Positions 17,760 to 57,203 of a stretch of 57,941 nt of DNA are shown piece by piece; the first letter of the stretch is position 1; every line of letters starts with the position of its first letter. Made by a program: the position numbers and the translations under genes. Source of the DNA: Candidatus Colwellbacteria bacterium CG10_big_fil_rev_8_21_14_0_10_42_22 (GTDB lineage: Bacteria > Patescibacteriota > Minisyncoccia > UBA6257 > Colwellbacteraceae); assembly GCA_002773725.1 (NCBI GenBank), contig PFAH01000010.1:1-57941 (forward strand), in the 5' to 3' direction. The notes under the pieces were generated by a model. The model was given only the letters and a program-made list of their open reading frames with translations. It searched no databases and had not been told where the DNA came from.

Positions 17760-17843
17760 TGCACGGAGAGGGATTCGAACCCCCGTAGGCGCAAGGCCGC
17801 CAGATTTACAGTCTGGTGCAATTGTCCACTCTGCCATCCGTGC
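17760..17843 (-). tRNA. tRNA-Tyr(GTA)
   Basis: Cloverleaf with long variable arm; anticodon arm CCAGA-CTGTAAA-TCTGG. Confidence 0.95.
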
Positions 17844-17891
17844 ATGTAATTTGTTAAAAGCCGTGTGCAATAGGTTTACCACAACCCTAGA

Positions 17892-17957
17892 GCACCAGAC
17901 CTGGTGCACCTGCCTGCCGGTAGGCAGGATTGTCCACTCTGCCATCCGTGCATGTAA
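17892..17957 (-). pseudogene. Duplicated 5' half of tRNA-Tyr, interrupted by a 20-bp palindrome
   Basis: 17929-17957 is identical to 17821-17849 and 17901-17908 to 17813-17820; anticodon loop and 3' half absent. Confidence 0.8.
17909..17928. repeat. 20-bp REP-like palindrome CCTGCCTGCCGGTAGGCAGG
   Basis: Exact reverse complement of 43049-43068. Confidence 0.85.
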
Positions 17958-32934: not shown

Positions 32935-33393
32935 ATGGTCGTCAACGATACTCCTGATTCGGGCAAAGGCATTCTCTACAACACAAGATGGGCTGGTGAC
33001 TACAGAGGGAAGCTCGAAGAAGCAGAGAAGAGGGGCGTTTGCATCTTCTGTCTCAAAGAACTCGAAAGGAGTGGGCGGAAGTTTCGACGTCTCGACTCGG
33101 CCATCATGTTCGAGAACGAGTTTCCCTCCAAGGGCGCGAAGATTCACCTGCTCATCGTGTCAGAACGTCACGTGACGAGCCCCGCCGATCTACATCTCCA
33201 CGAGTGGATGGACATACTCAGAATGTTCATTCAGGTAACCGAAGAGATGGGTGTTGATGGAGGAGCGTTGGTAGTTCGTTTCGGCGACTCCGACATCTCT
33301 GGGGCAACTGTTCACCACCTCCATTTCCACCTAGTGGTACCGAAGCTTGACGAGAGGGGTCTGTCAACTCCAGTCGCTTTCTACGTCGGGTAA
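32935..33393 (+). CDS. HIT-family protein (GC-rich, SD-led copy)
   Basis: CIFC zinc motif and HLHFH histidine triad. Confidence 0.85.
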   Translation: MVVNDTPDSGKGILYNTRWAGDYRGKLEEAEKRGVCIFCLKELERSGRKFRRLDSAIMFENEFPSKGAKIHLLIVSERHVTSPADLHLHEWMDILRMFIQVTEEMGVDGGALVVRFGDSDISGATVHHLHFHLVVPKLDERGLSTPVAFYVG

Positions 33394-37784: not shown

Positions 37785-37970
37785 TTATTTAACAATTAAT
37801 TCCAATAAATATACGAACGCAAAGTCCAAAGCGCCCAGGTAAGCCGCAATTATAAGCGAAACCACAATCACCACCATAACTAAAACAGTCGCTTCCTTGC
37901 GACTCGGCCAATTTATTCTCTTAAATTCACGAGTTGACTCCTTTATATAAAGTCTGAATTTACTAAACAT
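37785..37970 (-). CDS. secE: Preprotein translocase SecE
   Basis: EFKRINWPSRKE plus one TM; start trimmed to MFSKF. Confidence 0.93.
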   Translation of the reverse strand: MFSKFRLYIKESTREFKRINWPSRKEATVLVMVVIVVSLIIAAYLGALDFAFVYLLELIVK

Positions 37971-38020
37971 ATGCGCTCTAAATAATAGCGAAGGAGTCGA
38001 CTCTTCGCAAGACCAGTCAT

Positions 38021-38055
38021 AAAAGAATGATGCCACGCTGGTTGCGTGGCATCTG
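38021..38055 (-). repeat. 35-bp terminator-type repeat, copy 1
   Basis: Identical to 40408-40442; minus strand GATGCCACGC-AACCA-GCGTGGCATC followed by ATTCTTTT. Confidence 0.9.
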
Positions 38056-38070
38056 TGTGAGGATTTCTTT

Positions 38071-38496
38071 CTAGTCATCCCCACCGAAGAGGTCTTCCAG
38101 GAAGCCAATGATGTGCGGAGTTTCCGGTTCCGACCAGACCGCAATCCAGCCGGAGCGCAAACCCACGGAGGGCTTGTTCCACATCTTGTGCTCGTCCTTG
38201 AGAGCGGCCCAGAAAATGTTTCTGAGAATCTTCCCTTTTTCCTGGAGTTCATGAGCCTTGATAGCCAATCTCTCGGCTTGCTGAGTGTCCTGTGTGAAAT
38301 TTGCCTCAACGTTGATTTCCATTGAGGTCTTTATCCATCTAATGGCCGTCAGGTAGAGACGCCTCAGCTCATCACTGACTTCGCCGACAACATGGTCCCT
38401 ATCAGGATTCACATCGACCATGGGCTCAAACGGATTACCGGGATTGAGTTCAACGAGCTCCAACTCACTTGCGAGCAAATCTACCCAAATTGACAC
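38071..38496 (-). CDS. GC-rich orphan hypothetical protein
   Basis: 141 aa; GTG start after GGGGAG SD; upstream TTGACG. Confidence 0.8.
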   Translation of the reverse strand: MSIWVDLLASELELVELNPGNPFEPMVDVNPDRDHVVGEVSDELRRLYLTAIRWIKTSMEINVEANFTQDTQQAERLAIKAHELQEKGKILRNIFWAALKDEHKMWNKPSVGLRSGWIAVWSEPETPHIIGFLEDLFGGDD

Positions 38497-38563
38497 AATA
38501 CTCCCCTTTTTGTCTATGTCCTACTTTTAGGATTACAGATTTTATAAGTATTCGTCAAGTACT

Positions 38564-38911
38564 TTACCAATCCCGAGCCACGTTCGGCTCCCCCTTTGCG
38601 CCTACCAATCTCTTGATATCTTGTCCGCTAAACTTTTCGTTCAAAATATCTACGGCATAGACATTGTCTAGATACGTTGAAAAGACGTGCGCCTCTCTGC
38701 CTATATCTGCATCAATATACCCAATAACGTAATCTCTCGGTTTACTACTTTCCCTGTCGTCCCGTGGATAAATATCATACGGGGATATTTTTCTAATGGC
38801 CCACTGTTCTGTGGTTTCTTTCTTGAAAGAGATTTCCACCTTATTTCTACCCTGAATGGCTTTGATAATTTTCTCTTTAATGGCGGTTTTGTCGTCTATC
38901 ATTGAGCCCAT
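38564..38911 (-). CDS. Stand-alone WYL-like domain protein
   Basis: IIKAIQ..KVEISF....R.ISPYDI pattern; TATGAT 6 nt before ATG. Confidence 0.6.
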   Translation of the reverse strand: MGSMIDDKTAIKEKIIKAIQGRNKVEISFKKETTEQWAIRKISPYDIYPRDDRESSKPRDYVIGYIDADIGREAHVFSTYLDNVYAVDILNEKFSGQDIKRLVGAKGEPNVARDW

Positions 38912-38950
38912 GTTTAAATCATATCAAATAAAGCTTTTATATAAGATACA

Positions 38951-38979
38951 TTGACGGTTTACTACGTTTATTGTATTAA
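38951..38979 (+). promoter_or_regulatory. sigma70 promoter of the 39012-39573 unit
   Basis: TTGACG-17bp-TATTAA. Confidence 0.7.
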
Positions 38980-39011
38980 ATCTCTAGACCCTTTACTCGA
39001 AAGGAAGATGT

Positions 39012-39338
39012 ATGCCCTTCGTAACTATTCGTCGCAAAGAAGATGCACTCACTGACGGATCCGAGGGAACTCTCTCGGCGCTCTGCGACTTGTTAGAGGA
39101 GAAGTTGCCCTCGATTGTGGGTATGGGTGGCGGTATCGAATTCGACACCCCCTTCTTCGACAAATCGGCTCGTCACGTCCCCGACGTGCGGGTGGAAGTC
39201 GAAGGCCACGCTTATCTCGAACGCGACGAAGATCGGATTGCTAGCCAACTGCGGACCGCCATCGACTCTTCGGGAATCGTTCCCGAAGATGTTTTGTTGC
39301 AAATCGCGGTGAAACTCCCCCGCCTCGGCGTTGCTTAA
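39012..39338 (+). CDS. GC-rich orphan, possible tautomerase-superfamily fold
   Basis: Begins MPFVTI (Pro-1 after Met removal); beta-alpha-beta pattern repeated. Confidence 0.7.
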   Translation: MPFVTIRRKEDALTDGSEGTLSALCDLLEEKLPSIVGMGGGIEFDTPFFDKSARHVPDVRVEVEGHAYLERDEDRIASQLRTAIDSSGIVPEDVLLQIAVKLPRLGVA

Positions 39339-39360
39339 CAGCAACGAGGAGAAACTCCCT

Positions 39361-39573
39361 ATGGGTAAGAAGTTCAGGAAGATTTCTCTAAACGTCGACC
39401 CAGACGTTTATAAGGAACTACAAGCTCGAGGTGACATCCGCAACGTCTCGGATTACATCAGGAAGAGGATGGATCCCAAATGGGGCAACTTCAATCTCAG
39501 CGAGGGTGAACGATTGTTCGTCGTTGACCAAGACGGCAACCCTCTTCGCGAGATTGTTTTCCTCTATCTCTAA
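39361..39573 (+). CDS. GC-rich orphan, ribbon-helix-helix-like
   Basis: RKISLNVDPDVYKEL....NVSDYIRK; GAGGAG SD; start trimmed to MGKKF. Confidence 0.65.
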   Translation: MGKKFRKISLNVDPDVYKELQARGDIRNVSDYIRKRMDPKWGNFNLSEGERLFVVDQDGNPLREIVFLYL

Positions 39574-39706
39574 CCCCGTTCCCCGAACAAAGCAGTACGG
39601 CTTCGTGAGGGGGCGGGGTCGTATTGTTTTTGAATATTCTAATCTCCCACTGGACGACGCTAGAATTTATCTGTTATACATATAAAACCGAAGAGAGGAG
39701 TATTGC

Positions 39707-40066
39707 ATGGCCTTTGACACGACTAGGTTCACCGAAGAGTCCATCCTCGAAACCGCTGACATCTACAGGCGAATTGAGGCCCTCCAACAGGAATCAGCCA
39801 ATCGTCACACAGATGAGTTGAAGCTCCATAGTGGAGGATTCGGTGATTCGCCAGATCTTCAGGAACTGATTCACTTCGTCATCAAGACCCTTGAGGGAAA
39901 TGGTCTTGAACCATCTTTCGAGATGGTGATGATGATTCTCTGGGAAAGAGGTCTATACAAGGGAACCTTCAGGAGTGCGTACTCGAGGATGCTGGACCAA
40001 GGGCTTCTCGGCACACACGGAGATTGCATCCTCCACATCCCCATACTCGAGGAGGTGAGAAGGTGA
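39707..40066 (+). CDS. GC-rich orphan hypothetical protein
   Basis: 119 aa; GAGGAG SD. Confidence 0.75.
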   Translation: MAFDTTRFTEESILETADIYRRIEALQQESANRHTDELKLHSGGFGDSPDLQELIHFVIKTLEGNGLEPSFEMVMMILWERGLYKGTFRSAYSRMLDQGLLGTHGDCILHIPILEEVRR

Positions 40067-40314
40067 CCACCAACACAAAGATGGACGAAGTAATCGAATT
40101 CGTTGCCTCTGTGGCAACCGACGTTGTCAACGCATACAGCGGTGATCCTGTTGGTTGGGCAGATCTTGAGATCGATCTGACCATATGGCTCATGAGGGAG
40201 ACGGATCTTGGACCACTCGATGCTGCAGATGTTGCCAATAGAAGCATCTGGCACGGCATCAACACCGGGAGGATGAACTTCCACCTCGGAGACCTCAGTC
40301 CTGCTACAACCTAA
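40063..40314 (+). CDS. GC-rich orphan hypothetical protein
   Basis: GTG start overlaps the upstream stop; AGGAGGTGA SD. Confidence 0.7.
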   Translation: MTTNTKMDEVIEFVASVATDVVNAYSGDPVGWADLEIDLTIWLMRETDLGPLDAADVANRSIWHGINTGRMNFHLGDLSPATT

Positions 40315-40365
40315 CACAACCCCCATCGCCAACGAAGATTCCCTCTTCGGCTCGGCGTCGGGGGT

Positions 40366-40405
40366 TTCTTCGTTTTTAGATATTCAAAAACTACTAATCC
40401 TCCAC
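40366..40405 (+). repeat. Conserved post-terminator motif, copy A
   Basis: TTCTTCGTTTTTAGATATTCAAAAACTACTAATCCTCCAC; similar to 50463-50502 and 39624-39650. Confidence 0.75.
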
Positions 40406-40407
40406 CA

Positions 40408-40442
40408 AAAAGAATGATGCCACGCTGGTTGCGTGGCATCTG
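40408..40442 (-). repeat. 35-bp terminator-type repeat, copy 2
   Basis: Identical to 38021-38055. Confidence 0.9.
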
Positions 40443-40451
40443 AGTGGGCTC

Positions 40452-40694
40452 CTATGAGGCCGTGGTAACGACAATGGGCTCTGGATCTATCACTCGCATA
40501 CATCCCCAAGGCGCGAACGCCAGTCTCGAATAGTTTCCCGAAACAAGGCTGGCGTTTGCAAAAGAGATGTCGCCGGAAGTGAATCCATCCGCCTCCAATG
40601 CTTCAATCTCGTCGAGAATGGGAAACGGTTCATCGCCGTAGAGCTCCACAATCTTCGCCAGAATCTTGTTGATAGTTGCCAGGTCATGAGCCAT
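40452..40694 (-). CDS. GC-rich orphan hypothetical protein
   Basis: 80 aa from MAHDL; GGAGG SD. Confidence 0.7.
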   Translation of the reverse strand: MAHDLATINKILAKIVELYGDEPFPILDEIEALEADGFTSGDISFANASLVSGNYSRLAFAPWGCMRVIDPEPIVVTTAS

Positions 40695-40826
40695 AGCTTT
40701 CCTCCAAGGTGCAATCTTCTTATTCAAACTATACACAAAAAAAGCGGTATACCGCAAAACTTTACTAATCTCTCGTCAAAAAATCCCATGTGCACCATCC
40801 CATCTTTGACGGAGGGATTCTTTGAA

Positions 40827-41255
40827 TTAATCTAGATAATCTCTTACTTCTTTTAATACGGCTCTCGCTTCTTCGTGCGTTAATATGTCTTGAGCTTCAT
40901 CAAATGAGACCCACTTTGATTCTTCTATCTCTTCTGTCGGGTCTGGGGCAATCTCTTTATCAATAGTCGAAACAATTCCCACAAAATACGTAACCGTTTT
41001 ATCGTACATGTTGCCATCTCTAGGAAATGAATATTCTTCTACAAATTTATTGCCAAAATCAATCTCAACCTCGCTAATTCCAGTTTCCTCCAAAAGCTCT
41101 CTTCGCGCGGTTTGTTCAATCGATTCCCCTTCTTCTGCATGACCTTTAGGGAAAGCCCAGTGGTCACCTTTGTGTTTGATAATGAGGATTTTTGTTGATT
41201 CATCCCCTTTCTTAAACACTGGGATGACTCCCATTGATTCGTCTTTGATAGTCAT
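40827..41255 (-). CDS. NUDIX hydrolase (Ap4A hydrolase-like)
   Basis: HWAFPKGH..EGES..QTARRELLEETG Nudix box. Confidence 0.92.
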   Translation of the reverse strand: MTIKDESMGVIPVFKKGDESTKILIIKHKGDHWAFPKGHAEEGESIEQTARRELLEETGISEVEIDFGNKFVEEYSFPRDGNMYDKTVTYFVGIVSTIDKEIAPDPTEEIEESKWVSFDEAQDILTHEEARAVLKEVRDYLD

Positions 41256-41308
41256 GCCTAAATTCTACACCCAAAAACGTGAAAACCGCCTTTGAGCGGT
41301 TAATCTGC

Positions 41309-41341
41309 GTAGAGGGAGAAGCTCGATGCTTCTCCCTCTAC
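41309..41341 (-). terminator. 14-bp perfect hairpin downstream of ORF 41349-41708
   Basis: GTAGAGGGAGAAGC-TCGAT-GCTTCTCCCTCTAC; second hairpin at 41282-41301. Confidence 0.7.
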
Positions 41342-41348
41342 GACTTCC

Positions 41349-41708
41349 CTAGCTGCTAGTACCCACCCTCTCTCCAGGGTAGATGAACAGCATCACCTGG
41401 GCGATGCCGAGAAGGAAGATCCCAACGACGACGAACGCTGCCGAGAGTTCCTCCACTGCAATCGAGGCAACGAAGGTTGCGGAGGGCAACCCCAGAAGCA
41501 CGAATGTCGCCGAAGAGCGAAGTAGTTGGTCGTCCTCCTTCGACACAATCCCGAGAAAGGCCCACGCGAGGACAATGACGAAAATCACCGTCAAATCCCA
41601 CGCGAGAAAGTCCTCTCCGTTCGCGAATGCTTCCTTCGCTCCCGAAGGGAGGCATCCAATGAACACCATCGCCACGAAAAAGACGAGCCTGTACGTCAAC
41701 GAGAACAT
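41349..41708 (-). CDS. GC-rich orphan membrane protein (~4 TM)
   Basis: Hydrophobic 119 aa; GGGAGGT SD. Confidence 0.75.
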   Translation of the reverse strand: MFSLTYRLVFFVAMVFIGCLPSGAKEAFANGEDFLAWDLTVIFVIVLAWAFLGIVSKEDDQLLRSSATFVLLGLPSATFVASIAVEELSAAFVVVGIFLLGIAQVMLFIYPGERVGTSS

Positions 41709-41739
41709 TTTGACCTCCCGGTCATTGGTCTAGGAACTG

Positions 41740-41793
41740 GATTTCAACTCCTATCCCAAACCACATTTATAATCTGGGATAGGAGTTGAAATC
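41740..41793. repeat. Perfect 19-bp inverted repeat
   Basis: GATTTCAACTCCTATCCCA-16nt-TGGGATAGGAGTTGAAATC. Confidence 0.9.
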
Positions 41794-41824
41794 AAGTGTA
41801 GATAGCTTAAAGAACTGTGAATGC

Positions 41825-41853
41825 ATTATACCACGATATACTTCATTCGTCAA
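41825..41853 (-). promoter_or_regulatory. Consensus sigma70 promoter
   Basis: TTGACG-17bp-TATAAT with extended -10 TG. Confidence 0.8.
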
Positions 41854-41997
41854 TATCAACTCCAAATCCCCCGTCAAAAAAAATCATTTTTCAAAAATTT
41901 AGAAATCTAATGAATAATCAAATTATTCAATGATAAAGAAAATCCAGTTATTGGAGCTGAATTATTTTGTTTCTGAGAAAATGTGTGGAGTGAACCC

Positions 41998-43017
41998 CTA
42001 ATCCACCCCATAAGGCCTATAAACCTCAGGGTCTATGGTCCTCTCAAAACAAGCCCTCCCCTCCTCATGATCCCAAGAATCATTCGTACCTCCCGGCCAT
42101 GGATAAGAAATCGCCATATCTTCTATGTACCCTCCTTTCCCGCCCATCGGCACTATGCCTCCCCCGCGATAGTACTCCACCCAACCTTCCGGCATTGGCT
42201 TAGTAAAGGTGGCGCAAAGCTCAAAAGTAAGGGGCTTAAGGGCATTGTATTCATATGTCCTACCCTTTTCAAATTCCGGATCAACCGGTAGAGAATATCC
42301 CTGCAGAGGGTCCTTTAGGTCATTTAATGTTTTCGGCAACACTTCTTTATTCTGCCAATAACTCACTATCTGCCATTGAATATTCTGTAAATCCTCAATA
42401 CGTCTTTGATCAAGACGAAGCGCCCTCTGCTCCATGGGCGATCCGATTATCATAAAAGCTCCTATCACGGCTGATGTCACAAACACCACCGCAAGAGTTA
42501 GGCACAAAATGCGAACTGCTTTCCTTTTTTCTGTGTTTTTAAGCTCATAGAGGTAATAAAGACCCACCACTAGTGCTGTTACCAAGGTCGCTGCCACCTT
42601 AAGTAAAAAGCGAGTTGTAATCTCTCCCTCCACGAAATAGCGCACCAAAGTGATTAGGTCAACAACTATGGTAATAGTTGCTAGAAAGACAATGAGATAG
42701 AGCATCCATTTTTTTATCACTAAATCAACTCGCCCCAACCTGCCCTTGAGCATTTTGGTCCAAAAGTAAGAAGCCAGAATAAAAACAGGGAAAATAACTA
42801 AGAGTGTCGCAAGCGCCGACCGCATAGCAGACAGCTCGTATGGATTGTATCCATATTGATAATCCGCATTTAGGACATCTGGAAACTTTTTATTCAAAAC
42901 CCCAAAAACAACATTTAGAAATGAAGTAACGGTGGTAATGAGCCATACAAGAATAAAAAGCGAAGTAAAGAAAAACTTCGGGCTCAACTTCGGCTGATGT
43001 TCTACCGCTTCTTCCAT
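41998..43017 (-). CDS. Membrane protein, DUF5671-like, with C-terminal pseudopilin-like domain
   Basis: Five TM segments followed by RIEDLQNIQ..LP..L..L..P.DP...YEY....FELCATF. Confidence 0.7.
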   Translation of the reverse strand: MEEAVEHQPKLSPKFFFTSLFILVWLITTVTSFLNVVFGVLNKKFPDVLNADYQYGYNPYELSAMRSALATLLVIFPVFILASYFWTKMLKGRLGRVDLVIKKWMLYLIVFLATITIVVDLITLVRYFVEGEITTRFLLKVAATLVTALVVGLYYLYELKNTEKRKAVRILCLTLAVVFVTSAVIGAFMIIGSPMEQRALRLDQRRIEDLQNIQWQIVSYWQNKEVLPKTLNDLKDPLQGYSLPVDPEFEKGRTYEYNALKPLTFELCATFTKPMPEGWVEYYRGGGIVPMGGKGGYIEDMAISYPWPGGTNDSWDHEEGRACFERTIDPEVYRPYGVD

Positions 43018-43048
43018 ATACCTACTTATTATATCCCACTTCGCTAAA

Positions 43049-43068
43049 CCTGCCTACCGGCAGGCAGG
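43049..43068. repeat. 20-bp REP-like palindrome nested in a CTTCGCTAAA/GCTACG element
   Basis: Reverse complement of 17909-17928; flanks CTTCGCTAAA and GCTACGAGG. Confidence 0.85.
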
Positions 43069-43086
43069 GCTACGAGGGACAGGCAC

Positions 43087-44079
43087 CTAGAACCACGTGG
43101 TATCAGATAAACCAAAATGCCCTGCTCCTGCAGTTTTTTGGTATTGAGACTTCTTAAGATCTAGAAGTTTGATGATTCCTTGCGGGGTTAAATCGTATTC
43201 GGTGATTGTTTCCTTTCTCTTTTCCACCCGCCCCTGCGGGTCGAGGTAAATCAATTCTGCCTCTGCAGAGACAGGATCTACTACCCCGATCACATACGCT
43301 AGATGAACAACCACTTCCTTAGCGTTTCTCTCTTTTAGTAAATCTACCGCGATCTTGCGTGCCATGTAGGCGCCACTTCTATCCACTTTTGTTGGATCCT
43401 TACCTGAAAAACTTCCGCCCCCAACCGGCACATATGGTCCGTAATTATCAATAATTATCTTTCTGCCCGATAAACCTGAATCCGCCTCAAAACCGCCTAT
43501 ATGCCACTCTCCTGCGGGATTTATGTGATACTTGTCCGCTTTTATGAATTCACGTACAAGCGTCTCTAAATCAACTGTTTTGGTGTTTTGGAAACTAGCC
43601 ACAACGTCTGTCACTTTGTTTTTGTCAATCGTCACCTGTGTTTTGCCATCGAATGGATATCTCTTATATATATCCCTACACAAATTTCTCGCTAGTTCAT
43701 ATCCATACGGCATGAAGTTTTCCGTTTCGCTACACGCATAGCCCACCATAATGCCCTGATCACCCGCTCCGCCCGTATCTACTCCACGAGCAATCTCGGG
43801 GCTTTGTTTGGAAATAAATACTTCTACGTCGTAACTCGCTCTCGCTCCGCTCGGTCGAGACGGATCCGTCTCTACAACTTCGCGGGCGATTTTGGGGATA
43901 TCTACTTCGGCGCTACTTGTCACTTCCCCCGTGACTTTGATTTTCCCATGCCCCCCCATCACCTCTACTGCTACCCGTGCCTCCGGATCTTTTTCTAAAT
44001 AGGCATCCAAAATACTATCGGCTATTTGGTCGCAGATTTTATCCGGGTGTTTGGGTGAAACGAATTCGTATGTTTGCAT
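43087..44079 (-). CDS. metK: S-adenosylmethionine synthetase
   Basis: HPDKICDQ, GAGDQG, SGLSGRKIIIDNYG and GGGSFSGKDPTKVDRSGAY motifs. Confidence 0.96.
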   Translation of the reverse strand: MQTYEFVSPKHPDKICDQIADSILDAYLEKDPEARVAVEVMGGHGKIKVTGEVTSSAEVDIPKIAREVVETDPSRPSGARASYDVEVFISKQSPEIARGVDTGGAGDQGIMVGYACSETENFMPYGYELARNLCRDIYKRYPFDGKTQVTIDKNKVTDVVASFQNTKTVDLETLVREFIKADKYHINPAGEWHIGGFEADSGLSGRKIIIDNYGPYVPVGGGSFSGKDPTKVDRSGAYMARKIAVDLLKERNAKEVVVHLAYVIGVVDPVSAEAELIYLDPQGRVEKRKETITEYDLTPQGIIKLLDLKKSQYQKTAGAGHFGLSDTTWF

Positions 44080-44269
44080 ATTTGTTTTTGTTTTATGTTT
44101 TTTATTTAGTGCATGCGCAGGCAATGCATCTTGATGAACATCCCGCATGGCTTTGCGCTCAGTTCAGGCAAAGCCCGAGGGCGAAGAAATTTTTGTCGCT
44201 GAAACAAAAATATTCTGTTTCTAAGAGATATATCGCTTGCGTATTTTTCGGCAAATAAAATGCCGACAT

Positions 44270-44400
44270 TTTTATCCTTTCGACAAACTCTGGGCAAGCA
44301 GAGCAAGTCGAGTTTTGGTAAGCACCTTCTCGGTTCGTCATTTCCGAGGGTTGCCGGGTAGGTCACAGAGCCAATTCTCTTACTACCTCTCGCGATAAAT
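44270..44400 (-). ncRNA. SAM-I riboswitch
   Basis: Minus strand UUAUC-GCGAG-AGGUAG..GAGA..UGGCUCUGUGA-CCUACC-CGGCAACC..AAGGUGCU..GGAUAA, upstream of metK. Confidence 0.85.
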
Positions 44401-44448
44401 CGCAATATTCAATTATCTTTCTACTTTATATTATTTTGTCTTGTTCTT

Positions 44449-46464
<2,016 letters not shown>

Positions 46465-49751: not shown

Positions 49752-49823
49752 CGCGGGGAAGTGTAACGGTTGCACGTGAGGCTCATAACCTTAAGGCAGC
49801 GGGTTCGACTCCCGCCCCCGCAA
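49752..49823 (+). tRNA. Initiator-type tRNA-Met(CAT), non-canonical
   Basis: C1xA72 mismatch; anticodon arm TGAGG-CTCATAA-CCTTA; GCGGG-TTCGACT-CCCGC T-arm. Confidence 0.88.
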
Positions 49824-49829
49824 CAAAGC

Positions 49830-49858
49830 TTGACTTATCGCTTATTTTGTGATATAAG
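49830..49858 (+). promoter_or_regulatory. sigma70 promoter directly after the tRNA-fMet 3' end
   Basis: TTGACT-17bp-TATAAG with extended -10 TG. Confidence 0.7.
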
Positions 49859-49902
49859 GGGGCTTTTTTGTATAAAACTGGCGGAAAAAAACTGGAGGAG
49901 AG

Positions 49903-50370
49903 ATGACGTACGTACGAATGGCTGTGCGGCCCTTCAGGAAGCTTAGCGATTACATCAACAAGCTTCCCTTGGCCGGTAAACTGGCCATTGCCCCCGTGGT
50001 GTTTAGGGCGTACACAGCTCCCAAGGGCCAACGCCTGAGTCGTTTCCTGATGGCCGTCGCCCTCCTGTTGGTGATGATCGTTGGTCATTACCGCCAGGTA
50101 TTGCTCGGCTTGGAGCTCTACACGAACGGCGCTCCGTGGGCACAGAGCATCGGCTTGATCTACGCCGCGGTTAACATCCTCGTGGTGTACACGCAGGCAG
50201 TGATCTTGATAAGGGTGCTGGCACGCATCAGAAGGCTCGCCAGGATGCGGAACACAACCACCAGGCGCACCTACAAGGGCTTCAGTCCGGCACACAAGGT
50301 AGCCTGCTTTGCAGTCACGCTCGGTGGGCAAATCGTATTCCTCCTCTCACAGACCATCACAGGTTTGTAG
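49903..50370 (+). CDS. GC-rich orphan membrane protein
   Basis: Basic, ~3 TM segments; GGAGG SD. Confidence 0.75.
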   Translation: MTYVRMAVRPFRKLSDYINKLPLAGKLAIAPVVFRAYTAPKGQRLSRFLMAVALLLVMIVGHYRQVLLGLELYTNGAPWAQSIGLIYAAVNILVVYTQAVILIRVLARIRRLARMRNTTTRRTYKGFSPAHKVACFAVTLGGQIVFLLSQTITGL

Positions 50371-50462
50371 GATAGGATGTATACGACCCGAGAGGGCCTA
50401 ACGCCGCTGACGGAAAGCGAAGAGGCATAAGTCAAAACCTCTTCCCTACTTACTGAGGCGGC

Positions 50463-50502
50463 TTCTTCGTTTTTAGGTATTCAAAATCACTAATTCTCCC
50501 AC
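50463..50502 (+). repeat. Conserved post-terminator motif, copy B
   Basis: TTCTTCGTTTTTAGGTATTCAAAATCACTAATTCTCCCAC. Confidence 0.75.
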
Positions 50503-50541
50503 TATTTGGTTCCATCCGGATCTTACCCCCGCAACCATTAT

Positions 50542-54881: not shown

Positions 54882-57203
54882 TTATGAAGGCGGGATGAGC
54901 TTCATATTAAACGGCTTAGTAGTTTTACCATTGACCAACATCCTGACATACGCCTGAAAGTTATCCATCTCAATCAGGTCTTTCTGTTCAATCTTGGGGG
55001 CAAATTGTTTTTCCAGAAATTCTGCATCTTCTGCTCCCACTCTGAAGGCCATCATGGAGCCAACGTTGCCAAAGACCGCGTCCCTGATGTCGTCTTGAAG
55101 TTGCTGAATAAACTGGTGGGCGATAATCAGATTGAGTTTGTATTTCCTGGCCTCTGAAAGAATAGTAGCGATGCTGGGGGTGGTAATGTTTTGGAATTCA
55201 TCCATGTATAGATAAAAATCTTTACGAGTTCCTTCTTCGCTATCAACGCGCGAAAGAGCGGCCATTAAAAGTTTACCGACTACAACTAATCCGATAAGGT
55301 TGGAATTTAGATCTCCCAATTTCCCTTTTGAAAGATTAACTAAAATTATTTTCTGATTATCCATGGCATCCCTAAAGTTGATGGTACTTTTTTGCTGGCT
55401 AATAACGGGACGCAAAAACTCATCCGCCACAAAGCCGTTAATTTTAGAAGTGATGTAGGGAGCAATGTTTGAAAGAGATGCCTCTCCTTTGGCCTTCTCC
55501 GCCTCCCCTTCCCAAAAACGCTTAACTACTTCGTTTGTCTCGCGACTTAATTTATCTGCTCTGTATTCGCTGTCCGTTAGGACCTTTGGAACATCGAGAA
55601 GAGTCGGTATTTCGTGTGCATAGTCGTCTAAAAGCAAAAGGACGGAGTTCCTGAAATATTGATCAAAAACAGGACCCATGGTCTCTGCTAAAAAGAGCTT
55701 ATGGAATATACCTAAAAGTTCATTAACCACTAGCGTCTTCTGTTCGGGTCTCTTTGGGTCAATATCCAACATATTAAGGCCGAATGATCTTGATAAGTCG
55801 CCCGGATCAAACCAGACAATGTCTTGTTTCCTATTCTCGGGCACAATTGAGAGAGCATATTGAGCTAATTCTCCATGAGGGTCTAGAACGGCTAGCCCTT
55901 CACCATTTTCGATATCTTGTCTAATCATGTTTTTGAAAAAGCTCGTCTTACCGGTACCAGTTTGACCGACAACGTATAGATGCCTGCGTCTGTCGTCTCT
56001 ACTCATTCTAATAACGCTTTTTTTACCCCTGAATTCGTTTTCTCCTAAAACAACTCCTTCACTAGCAATCTCTGATGGGGGCTCAAGAATCTTGCCCTTA
56101 AGCGTCTTATACCCAGGTACACCAGCTTGAGATAAGGATAGGTGGAATAGTCCCACCAATTCTTTTGTGGAGATTAAGCTGGCTTTTTTGGGTTCAGGGA
56201 TTCTGAATGAATAATTAAAAACAAATTTGCGCATACTCCGAGAGCGAATCCGTTTTGTGTAAAATGAATTGCCAACGGGATTGCTAAACTGCTGATAGGC
56301 GGACTCCATTTCGCTAATGATTTGCTCGGCTCTCGTTTCGCTCTCAGCCGATACCACCAAACGAATGTTAGTTTGGAAGTGATGTTTGGTAATTTTTTCC
56401 TGAAGTTCCTTGATAAAGGCCTCGTCCGCAACTGTGCTCGGCTCTATTTCCTTTTGAGGTTGAGGGTTGCCGGATGCATCCCGAGCGGGAGTAGATAAGA
56501 TATTAGTTACTTCTCTTACTTTTTCACCTTTAACACGAGAGAGGGCGTTTGAAAAATCGTGACCCTTTTGCATCTCCTTTATAATCTTTTTGGCCATCTC
56601 TCTTTGTTTTCGATAGTCGGCGGGGCGAACAATGTATTGAACGGATGCCCCTTCCCCTTCTTCGGCGATTTTGCTCATAGCGGTAACAATGCTCGACAAC
56701 GGGTCTGCACTCATATTGTCGTACGTATTGAGAGATAGGAGTGGGGTGTTGCTAGTCCTGAGCCATGCACCTAAGCTAAATCCTCCGGGGGTAAAGATAT
56801 TATAGTCCTCGGTTTTCTTGACTTCAGCATAAGGGAATACGCCATGAATCTGTTTCTCAAGAATTCCCTCTATAGAGCGAGGCACGGCTATATAGCTCAT
56901 AATCTTATCTCCCTTGTGGTGCACCGCTAACTCCAGCGAAGCATAAGGTTGGCCATAAATTAGGGCTTTGAATCCACGCGCCCTCAAGCTCATCAAAGAG
57001 GTTAGGAACTGCTCCATGTCTTTCATAACTTTGTGTTCCTCGCCCTTCTCACTACTTTCATCTGCTTTAGGTAAGATAACTGAATATAAGGACGTGTTTA
57101 GGGAGCGCACTATAGAACCCTGTTTTCGGTGTTTTAATATAAAAATGGCCGATACAATAACCAACACAAGGAATAGAAGAAATAGAATTATGGTGGCGTT
57201 CAT
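54882..57203 (-). CDS. VirD4/TrwB/HerA-like P-loop ATPase
   Basis: RRRHLYVVGQTGTGKT, DPHGE, LYMDEFQN, EARKY and AHQFIQQL motifs; N-terminal TM. Confidence 0.88.
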   Translation of the reverse strand: MNATIILFLLFLVLVIVSAIFILKHRKQGSIVRSLNTSLYSVILPKADESSEKGEEHKVMKDMEQFLTSLMSLRARGFKALIYGQPYASLELAVHHKGDKIMSYIAVPRSIEGILEKQIHGVFPYAEVKKTEDYNIFTPGGFSLGAWLRTSNTPLLSLNTYDNMSADPLSSIVTAMSKIAEEGEGASVQYIVRPADYRKQREMAKKIIKEMQKGHDFSNALSRVKGEKVREVTNILSTPARDASGNPQPQKEIEPSTVADEAFIKELQEKITKHHFQTNIRLVVSAESETRAEQIISEMESAYQQFSNPVGNSFYTKRIRSRSMRKFVFNYSFRIPEPKKASLISTKELVGLFHLSLSQAGVPGYKTLKGKILEPPSEIASEGVVLGENEFRGKKSVIRMSRDDRRRHLYVVGQTGTGKTSFFKNMIRQDIENGEGLAVLDPHGELAQYALSIVPENRKQDIVWFDPGDLSRSFGLNMLDIDPKRPEQKTLVVNELLGIFHKLFLAETMGPVFDQYFRNSVLLLLDDYAHEIPTLLDVPKVLTDSEYRADKLSRETNEVVKRFWEGEAEKAKGEASLSNIAPYITSKINGFVADEFLRPVISQQKSTINFRDAMDNQKIILVNLSKGKLGDLNSNLIGLVVVGKLLMAALSRVDSEEGTRKDFYLYMDEFQNITTPSIATILSEARKYKLNLIIAHQFIQQLQDDIRDAVFGNVGSMMAFRVGAEDAEFLEKQFAPKIEQKDLIEMDNFQAYVRMLVNGKTTKPFNMKLIPPS

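Follow-up and report, generated by a model that had tools for sequence, protein, structure and literature searches.

The 35-nt module AAAAGAATGATGCCACGCTGGTTGCGTGGCATCTG occurs twice in a foreign-looking island of small genes in an uncultured groundwater bacterium. The module is probably an intrinsic terminator that was duplicated once, recently and locally, as genes were inserted at a hotspot. Each of the minus-strand copies would stop one small transcription unit, p115-p141 at copy 1 and p80 at copy 2, and copy 1 may also shield the promoter of secE-nusG-rplK, 10 nt downstream, against read-through. A GC-rich patch would have accumulated in the gyrB-secE spacer, where a block carrying p141 through p83 would have joined beside a resident p80-terminator-secE arrangement. 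The joining could have proceeded by recombination, of the Campbell or short-homology type, through the terminator common to both partners, which would leave one terminator copy on either side of the new block.

The 35-nt repeat and its terminator fold

A search of the window (the whole stretch of DNA analyzed, 57,941 nt) found two exact copies of the 35-mer, copy 1 at positions 38021 to 38055 and copy 2 at positions 40408 to 40442, with a spacing of 2,387 nt and no third match at up to 3 mismatches. The 35-mer was not matched in any of 100 shuffles of the sequence. Contigs from independent assemblies (L002 and L018/L023) span both copies in identical order, and contigs from different assemblers and samples (L002, L018/L023, L021, L003, and L004) span one copy or both. 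Since independent assemblies cross both copies in the order of the window, the repeat is not an assembly artifact, and the exact repeat at 38021 and 40408 claimed in an earlier reading of the letters alone (the sequence-only reading) is borne out. The alignment of the copies showed that identity extends to 39 nt with one mismatch, and that the repeat edge is sharp on the low-coordinate (distal) side and fades within about 8 nt toward the ORF. The homology gained on the latter side amounts to about 5 extra matches and could be of chance origin. A sharp distal edge together with a decaying ORF-side edge would be the expected outcome of recombination between 3' UTR terminators that were already similar.

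On the minus strand, the module reads as a stem GAUGCCACGC, a loop AACCA, and a stem GCGUGGCAUC, followed by AUUCUUUU. The stem has 10 bp, is GC-rich with 7 G-C pairs, and closes a loop of 5 nt. The terminator scan called both copies as minus-strand terminators, in agreement with the earlier naming of the repeat as a terminator module. RNA folding gave -21.5 kcal/mol and a z score of -3.9 for copy 1 and a z score of -3.5 for copy 2, and none of 200 shuffles matched the stability of the native stem-loop. The U-tract, AUUCUUUU(U/A), satisfies the scan rule of at least 5 U in 8, with an A and a C interrupting the tract. As had been noticed, each copy stands closely downstream of a minus-strand ORF. 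Copy 1 is 15 nt past the p141 stop, and the secE -35 hexamer follows it after 10 nt; copy 2 is 9 nt past the p80 stop, back-to-back with the plus-strand p83 terminator and motif B between convergent genes. No promoter follows copy 2, and the secE promoter that follows copy 1 falls outside the repeat. Three sequence features of an intrinsic terminator are present: a stable GC-rich stem-loop, a U-rich tract immediately 3' to it, and a position just behind a gene's coding sequence, on the strand that is transcribed. By its shape, the 35-mer is an ordinary Rho-independent (intrinsic) terminator, and it presumably terminates transcription in vivo. A search of RNA runs recovered the locus in none of them. 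Rfam searches of the window at gathering scores and of positions 37900 to 44500 at an E value of up to 1 returned no family at either copy, except a noise match to whalefall-1 (E value of 0.66).

In X1, the best metagenome, the unitig of the 35-nt repeat has a depth of 68, about 2.3 times that of the four adjoining contigs (28.1, 29.4, 32.7, and 29.6), and only the four known flanks are joined to it. The repeat depth of 68 against flank depths of 28 to 33, with only the known flanks, indicates two copies per genome. That only these two copies exist is the first half of the outcome which the sequence-only reading had itself named as refuting its inference. The 35-mer is missing from 80 related loci and has no match in viral contigs. 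A scan of the genome collection for the stem with a free loop returned nine matches; all are to the bare stem only, come from unrelated taxa such as Paraburkholderia and Microbacterium, and were read as chance matches. Downstream of the five p141 homologues for which this sequence was read, the module is absent and a different sequence is found. On these sequences, the module shows no tie to the p141 family. The 35-mer does not look dispersed, mobile, or widely reused, and the idea that it is a reusable cassette end in the sense of a general device finds no support, given the two copies per genome and its absence after the p141 homologues and in the related loci. The alternative put forward at the same time, a recent duplication of the module, is supported by the exact identity, the restriction to two local copies, and the absence from relatives.

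Genes of foreign composition in the gyrB-secE spacer

The two copies enclose six small ORFs, as had been counted before. The minus-strand p141 (38071 to 38496; GC content at third codon positions [GC3], 0.63) is the gene ended by copy 1. It belongs to a widespread uncharacterized family of about 135 to 140 aa, with 423 cluster representatives at an E value of up to 1e-3. The AF2 model of p141 has a pLDDT of 93.3, while no Pfam relative, no PDB profile match, and no meaningful structure neighbor was found (best E values of about 1 in the PDB and 0.04 in BFVD, with TM below 0.4). Two p141 homologues on long contigs have housekeeping-gene surroundings. Upstream on the same strand is p115 (38564 to 38911; GC3, 0.47), which has a weak WYL-like match under the Pfam threshold.

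The other four ORFs are on the plus strand. The first, p108 (39012 to 39338), is preceded by a promoter-like TTGACG-17-TATTAA (38951 to 38979, read by eye), and its homologue in a relative (L041) also sits in the gyrB-secE spacer with the orientation kept (pairwise E value of 2e-9, 34% identity). It is followed by p70 (39361 to 39573), which has a long hairpin terminator (39573 to 39619) and then motif B1 (39626 to 39650) behind it. No family match was found for p119 (39707 to 40066), which is retained in a strain with 9 differences in 203 nt there. The last ORF, p83 (40063 to 40314), is a gene call in contig L018, overlaps the p119 stop by 4 nt, and is followed by a terminator hairpin (40318 to 40366) with a fold of -30.1 kcal/mol and a z score of -5.1.

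Beyond the bracketed segment, copy 2 ends the minus-strand ORF p80 (40452 to 40694; GC3, 0.58), which has a GGAGG ribosome-binding site. A homologue search with p80 returned p80 itself as the sole match, and p141 and p80 have no significant protein similarity. The two genes that end in the repeat were indeed found to share no protein sequence; the description of both as orphans holds for p80 and does not hold for p141 with its large family. The GC3 values of p141, p108, p70, p119, p83, and p80 are 0.57 to 0.63, and that of the host is 0.393 +/- 0.051 (48 ORFs). The composition of the GC-rich patch is foreign, and the patch was probably acquired horizontally. Since p80, beyond copy 2, matches the enclosed genes in GC3, copy 2 falls within the foreign region and not at its edge, contrary to the earlier view of an island bracketed by the repeats.

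We then compared the surroundings with those in relatives. In 53 of 60 relatives, gyrB adjoins secE directly (spacing of at most 150 nt), with the gyrB stop codon a few nucleotides upstream of the secE promoter. This promoter (TTGCGA-17-TATTAT; minus strand, 37982 to 38010 in the window) is conserved in relatives. The same 53 relatives lack, at this place, a lineage-specific segment of 6.4 kb that runs from the secE promoter to the gyrB stop (38011 to 44448) and contains the island, a NUDIX gene, p119b, a DUF5671 gene, and metK with its SAM riboswitch. The remaining seven relatives have other inserts of 217 to 2025 nt between gyrB and secE, and the three largest of these carry genes unrelated to one another. 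Since seven relatives carry other inserts in the spacer, the comparison of these loci shows the gyrB-secE spacer to be a recurrent insertion hotspot in the clade. An indel at the borders of the repeat pair, which the sequence-only reading had asked for, is seen in none of the strains; the region is missing from relatives, with an indel that starts about 10 nt beyond copy 1 and reaches gyrB instead of ending at copy 2. The left repeat stands at the edge of the lineage-specific DNA, and the right one falls within the GC-rich region.

Other short repeats are found in the window. Motif B2, GGGGGTTTCTTCGTTTTTAGATATTCAAAA...CTAATCCTCCAC (plus strand, 40360 to 40405), found by repeat-family search and alignment, is another shared 3' module, and 2 nt separate its end from copy 2. 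Motif B3 (plus strand, 50457 to 50502) is about 85 to 90% identical to B2, follows an unrelated GC-rich gene, p155 (49903 to 50370), and is separated by 5 nt from a degenerate tRNA-Met 3' end (50508 to 50535), with which the p155 cassette closes. With B1, motif B has three copies in the window. The palindrome CCTGCCTGCCGGYAGGCAGG occurs at 17909 and 43049, and the copy at 43049 overlaps a -35 hexamer. Short regulatory modules are reused at foreign-gene borders in the window. At the tRNA-Met gene, a 121-nt segment is flanked by the 16-nt tRNA-Met end, and X1 has a depth of 9 with the segment and 24.5 without it. This 16-nt-repeat indel is clearly polymorphic in a sample in which no variant was seen at the 35-mer.

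Origin of the second copy

Instead of a doubled terminator, the two copies could be the attL/attR core of a small element (38056 to 40442) whose recombinase is encoded elsewhere, with the hairpin as the attachment site and the p155 tRNA-Met cassette as a member of the same family. Identical direct repeats do bracket a GC-rich block of 2.39 kb, and the layout of a repeat, genes, a terminator with motif B, and a second repeat is found at two loci (copy 2 and p155/tRNA-Met). Repeat-flanked indels also exist in the population, as the 121-nt tRNA-Met segment in X1 demonstrates. However, no recombinase, integrase, or transposase was found among the ORFs of at least 90 aa and the island ORFs (58 kb of one genome). 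The right compositional boundary lies beyond copy 2 with p80 equally foreign, and one edge of the repeat decays rather than being sharp. No empty site with a single 35-mer was found in the 80 related loci, in which the gyrB-secE spacers show the secE promoter only.

Eight runs and all spanning contigs yielded no deletion, circle, or empty-site variant, within the scope of k=31 unitigs, which are unable to resolve joints across a 35-nt repeat, and of read depth, which shows only variants above about 10 to 15%. All spanning contigs of the species carry the island with no alternative junction, and the island depth equals the flank depth with neither deficit nor excess. At this resolution, no present-day rearrangement was seen at the 35-mer. 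We regard the attL/attR account as unlikely. The earlier suggestion of a recombination site may hold as history, in that the repeats may mark the entry of a block, but there is no sign of activity in the form of a recombinase, uneven depth, or an alternative junction.

The 35-mer might also be a regulatory module that a donor genome or element uses repeatedly; both genes would have arrived with it, and recombination between its copies may still mediate the shuffling of small ORFs. The module ends unrelated small ORFs in a hyperplastic region, motif B and the palindrome are likewise reused in the window, and the PeSLs of phages phi1 and RB49 act in this manner (PMC2839356). On the other hand, there are two copies only, and no third flank is found in a metagenome with the organism at about 30x, which indicates that no donor is present there. 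Viral contigs have no match to the module, the island proteins have no tblastn match in phage and plasmid records, copy 2 has no associated promoter, and recombinant forms were not seen. This makes such a donor module improbable.

A broader proposal, which we hold to be very improbable, treats the 35-mer, motif B, and the tRNA-end repeats as the termini of very small gene cassettes of one family, which a recombinase acting in trans would move and which would accumulate at hairpin and tRNA sites in this CPR-like lineage, with the gyrB-secE spacer as a collecting site. Such a family would correspond, on a chromosome, to the PeSL cassettes of phages or to an integron that lacks a local integrase, and, if real, it would suggest that CPR bacteria have a gene-capture mechanism. 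To our knowledge, the mobile genetic elements of CPR bacteria have so far been little characterized. Finally, the probability that the repeat is an assembly artifact or a chance or convergent match of two independent terminators is close to nil: De Bruijn unitigs do break exactly at the repeat, but the contigs that span the copies with the order unchanged have effectively refuted this reading, and an exact identity of 35 nt is unexpected by chance.

We thus favor the duplication of a terminator by gene insertion. We infer both the recombination route behind the duplication and the order of events, the latter because no relative or strain preserves the p80-terminator-secE intermediate. Taken in this way, the locus illustrates on a small scale how a streamlined genome may take up small genes by horizontal transfer. 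Each acquired gene would keep its own promoter and terminator, and the terminator nearest to the essential secE-nusG-rplK operon would keep read-through out of that operon. More useful, as a by-product, is the recurrent gyrB-secE hotspot across dozens of related uncultured groundwater bacteria.

Comparison with known systems

Several classes of repeat were rejected. REP/MITE-like palindromes are numerous and dispersed, whereas the 35-mer has two copies 2.4 kb apart. CRISPR arrays have three or more regular repeats with spacers of 25 to 50 nt, and the two copies here are 2,387 nt apart with genes between them. Integron attC sites come with a nearby intI, a same-orientation cassette array, and conserved R/L core sites (GTTRRRY); here there is no integrase, the cassettes are on both strands, and the loop region GTTGCGT (by reading) does not fit GTTRRRY. 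A dif site was rejected on anatomy.

The direct repeats around foreign DNA resemble the attL/attR scars of tRNA genes, and the tRNA-Met of the window has such scars, including the polymorphic 121-nt segment. The 35-mer differs in that it forms a terminator hairpin instead of matching the end of a tRNA gene, and no integrase was found among the ORFs checked. The E. coli H47 island, the excision of which was shown by PCR (Azpiroz & Lavina 2017, PMC5426353), is likewise small, has direct repeats on both sides of its block of genes, and lacks its own recombinase gene, but in our case an excision product was not detected and the right repeat is off the compositional boundary. The PeSLs of T4-type phages combine a promoter with a stem-loop, occur in about 50 copies per phage genome, and have demonstrated recombinants and mini-circles (Arbiol et al. 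2010, PMC2839356; Comeau et al. 2014, PMC4122927). The likeness to PeSLs lies in a repeated stem-loop terminator that borders functionally uncharacterized small genes of a hyperplastic region, with copy 1 directly upstream of a sigma-70-like promoter; the differences are that there are two copies on a bacterial chromosome, that copy 2 has no promoter, and that no recombinants were seen. With Rho-independent terminators, the module shares the GC-rich 10-bp stem, the short loop, the U-rich tail, the position 9 to 15 nt past a stop codon, and the intergenic gap. It differs from them, as read here from sequence, in that the U-tract is interrupted and that an identical 35 nt serves two neighboring unrelated genes.

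The repeated terminator and its copy number

The sequence AAAAGAATGATGCCACGCTGGTTGCGTGGCATCTG was found as an exact 35-mer twice in the window, at 38021-38055 (copy 1) and 40408-40442 (copy 2); no third copy with ≤3 mismatches was present in the window, and none arose in 100 shuffles. On the minus strand, each copy consists of the stem GAUGCCACGC, AACCA, the stem GCGUGGCAUC and then AUUCUUUU. A consensus scan called both copies as terminators with 10 pairs (7 G-C), and the fold z scores were -3.9 (copy 1) and -3.5 (copy 2), with 0 of 200 shuffles folding equally well. Copy 1 lies 15 nt past the stop codon of p141 (38071-38496, minus strand) and copy 2 lies 9 nt past that of p80 (40452-40694), which is preceded by a GGAGG ribosome-binding site. 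Pairwise comparison of the p141 and p80 proteins showed no significant similarity, and six ORFs (p141, p115, p108, p70, p119 and p83) were counted between the copies. The sequence-only reading, an exact 35-bp direct repeat that closes two unrelated minus-strand ORFs and encloses six small ORFs, was thus borne out. The Rfam search returned no family at either copy, and no RNA run matched the locus. The anatomy and position of the 35-mer make it quite likely that it acts as a terminator in the cells.

With the repeat finder, the match extended over 39 nt, one of them mismatched. In the copy-versus-copy alignment, the low-coordinate edge was sharp and the ORF-side edge was a short tail fading out (CTG[T/A]GTG..GG).

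Contigs matching the window were retrieved from several groundwater samples (L002, L003, L004, L018/L023, L021 and L022). These contigs, from JGI, ENA (k141_ prefix) and another ENA assembly, were 99.96-100% identical to the window and crossed copy 1, copy 2 or both with the order unchanged. An assembly artefact as the source of the repeat was ruled out by these spanning contigs from separate assemblies and samples.

In X1, the metagenome run with the organism at the highest abundance, the Logan k=31 unitigs broke at the repeat as expected. The depth of the 35-nt repeat unitig was 68, while the adjoining contigs (28.1, 29.4, 32.7 and 29.6) were exactly the four known flanks, with no other flank. 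There are therefore about two copies per genome, and no module-bearing donor genome in that community. The hairpin pattern had nine matches in unrelated taxa of the species-representative genome collection and none in viral contigs, and the 35-mer was absent at ≤3 mismatches from 80 related loci. The proposed search for all copies gave about two per genome and yielded no third flank in X1, while the nine genome-collection matches were read as chance. A recent module duplication agrees with a terminator that is duplicated, present in about two copies per genome and not found in the 80 related loci.

Reads or relatives with the 38056-40442 deletion, which had been suggested as a check, did not turn up: no alternative junctions were reported in eight runs, the depth over the island equalled that of the flanks, and no empty site is known. 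Since the 35-nt repeat exceeds k=31, junction variants were judged by depth and longer-k assemblies only, and those below ~10-15% would be missed. A positive control was provided by the tRNA-Met 3' end (49812-49827), where a 121-nt segment flanked by a 16-nt direct repeat, CCGCCCCCGCAACAAA, is missing in the window and present in L018 (747-867). X1 held both forms, with (depth 9) and without (depth 24.5) the segment, showing that a repeat-mediated indel was detectable in the same sample. The island was also retained in a strain differing at 9/203 nt within p119. The duplicated terminator appears to be fixed in the population.

Composition of the island and the p141 family

The window is a low-GC (42.5%) housekeeping stretch containing secE-nusG-rplK, gyrB, pheST, metK, dnaE, ribosomal protein genes and a DUF5671 gene, and its host ORFs have a GC3 of 0.393 +/- 0.051 (n=48). 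Gene content and habitat suggest that the host, an uncultured groundwater bacterium, may be CPR/Patescibacteria-like. The GC3 was 0.57-0.63 (z 3.5-4.6) in p141, p108, p70, p119, p83 and p80, and intermediate (0.47) in p115. As p80 is as GC3-rich as the others, the foreign stretch runs from copy 1 to ~40780 with p80 included. Copy 2 is therefore inside this stretch, not at its edge, and the repeats do not bracket the compositional island.

No Pfam or PHROG family was above threshold for any island ORF, no island ORF matched phage and plasmid records, and the sole match to p80 in the homology search was p80 itself. Other GC3-rich outliers were a second HIT-family gene (32935-33393, plus strand, GC3 0.62) beside its low-GC HIT paralogue and p119b (41349-41708, minus strand, GC3 0.73), whose sequence resembles a membrane protein; they suggest several separate small acquisitions. 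A near-perfect long hairpin (41736-41797; 23-nt arms, 96% complementary, 16-nt loop) lies between the DUF5671 gene and p119b. It matched only sub-threshold microRNA-precursor models in Rfam, which were taken as noise.

The p141 gene, previously taken for an orphan, encodes a member of a sizeable family of uncharacterised proteins. The exhaustive HMMER search (E≤1e-3) returned 423 cluster representatives, counted as clusters at 50% identity, the best match being 49% identical. P25, G38, W96, L105, W106, G112 and R114 were near-invariant, and the AlphaFold model from the HMMER alignment (pLDDT 93.3) resembled no structure in either library searched, PDB or BFVD. Two homologues on long contigs were each single among housekeeping genes, one between hisS and a HIT gene near ftsA/ftsZ and comEC, the other with mostly unannotated neighbours. 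In the five homologues whose downstream sequence was read, it was quite different, so the 35-mer is not baggage of the p141 gene family.

The gyrB-secE spacer and its small inserts

The 80 related loci were retrieved via NusG (66-85% identity), and the window proteins were mapped onto them. The end of gyrB was ≤150 nt before secE in 53 of the 60 loci showing both genes, and the spacer was approximately the secE promoter alone (CTTGAAT-17-TATTAT), beginning a few nt past the gyrB stop. In the window this promoter is intact (TTGCGA-17-TATTAT, 38010-37982) and gyrB is 6.4 kb away from it, followed in order by a SAM riboswitch, metK, the DUF5671 gene, p119b, a NUDIX gene and the GC-rich genes. Copy 1, 10 nt from the secE -35 hexamer, is thus at the end nearest to secE of the entire lineage-specific DNA. 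In seven relatives the corresponding position is occupied by inserts of 217-2025 nt; among these are a 231-aa ORF (L046), a membrane-like 298-aa protein with a 112-aa ORF (L049) and a homologue of p108 with its orientation preserved (L041; 34% identity, E 2e-9). Small genes have thus landed in this spacer repeatedly within the clade.

The SAM-I aptamer upstream of metK (44269-44401, minus strand; 42.1 bits, E 3.6e-7, full-length model match) scored below the Rfam gathering score of 44.4 and was missed at the curated threshold; it is probably real. The gyrB match is interrupted by ~1.27 kb in two relatives (L032 4756-6029; L033 5851-7124), which could be an intein or other insertion.

A 20-nt palindrome, CCTGCCTGCCGG(C/T)AGGCAGG, occurs at 17909-17928 and at 43049-43068; at the latter site it shares bases with the -35 hexamer of the promoter that follows metK. 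In 622 kb from this genome and its relatives (L041, L045, L046, L048, L049, L054, L068 and L070), it had 10 occurrences in non-homologous contexts, with conservation limited to the palindrome itself; in L041, L046 and L049 it is inside the gyrB-secE spacer. The palindrome at 17909-17928 immediately precedes the second copy (17929-17957) of a 29-nt exact duplication of the tRNA-Tyr 5' end plus 6 upstream nt (first copy, 17821-17849), an arrangement that looks like a tRNA copied in part and carrying 20 inserted nt. A 40-nt direct repeat at 1-40 and 90-129 (98% identical, 89 nt start to start, internal AT-rich palindrome) could be part of a longer array cut by the window edge.

Origin of the two copies

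The reading we moderately favor is that a p141...p83 block recombined in beside a resident p80-terminator-secE arrangement. Recombination would have run through terminators that were already similar, leaving one copy on either side of the block. This origin is favored because the direct orientation, the sharp distal and fading ORF-side edges, the hotspot, the composition shared by p80 and the block, and the copy number of two all fit.

Alternatively, the copies may be attachment repeats of an integrated element. The best argument for this comes from motif B, in which the plus-strand p70, p83 and the distant p155 each end in a long hairpin, then a T-run and then a common tail, TATTC...CTAAT(C/T)CTCC(C)AC (B1 39626-39650, B2 40360-40405, B3 50457-50502; B2 and B3 ~85-90% alike). 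B2 ends 2 nt from copy 2, and in a parallel layout B3 ends 5 nt from a degenerate copy of the tRNA-Met 3' end (50508-50535, GGTTC...CCCCCGCAAC). The GC-rich, membrane-like p155 (49903-50370, plus strand, GC3 0.76) lies beside tRNA-Met, between it and this degenerate copy, and the region (49825-50535) has the look of a scar left by an integrated element that no longer has its integrase. Against attachment repeats at the 35-mer, no recombinase gene was found among the ORFs checked, neither an empty site nor an excision signal was seen, and the right-hand repeat is located within foreign DNA, which leaves attachment repeats unlikely. Only one gene reminiscent of conjugation or DNA transfer was seen in the window; it encodes a 773-aa TraG/VirD4-type coupling protein (54882-57203, minus strand) with T4SS-DNA_transf, TrwB_AAD_bind and TraG-D_C domains.

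The repeat is genuine, and the evidence does not back the sensational interpretations; a duplicated terminator lies in a mosaic island, and the island occupies an insertion hotspot. Although the locus fails their defining features, PeSL-mediated shuffling by the promoter/stem-loop cassettes of T4-type phages (PMC2839356) and recombinase-less islands with short flanking direct repeats (PMC5426353) are parallels, and the 35-mer pair is a further instance of an already known kind of thing.
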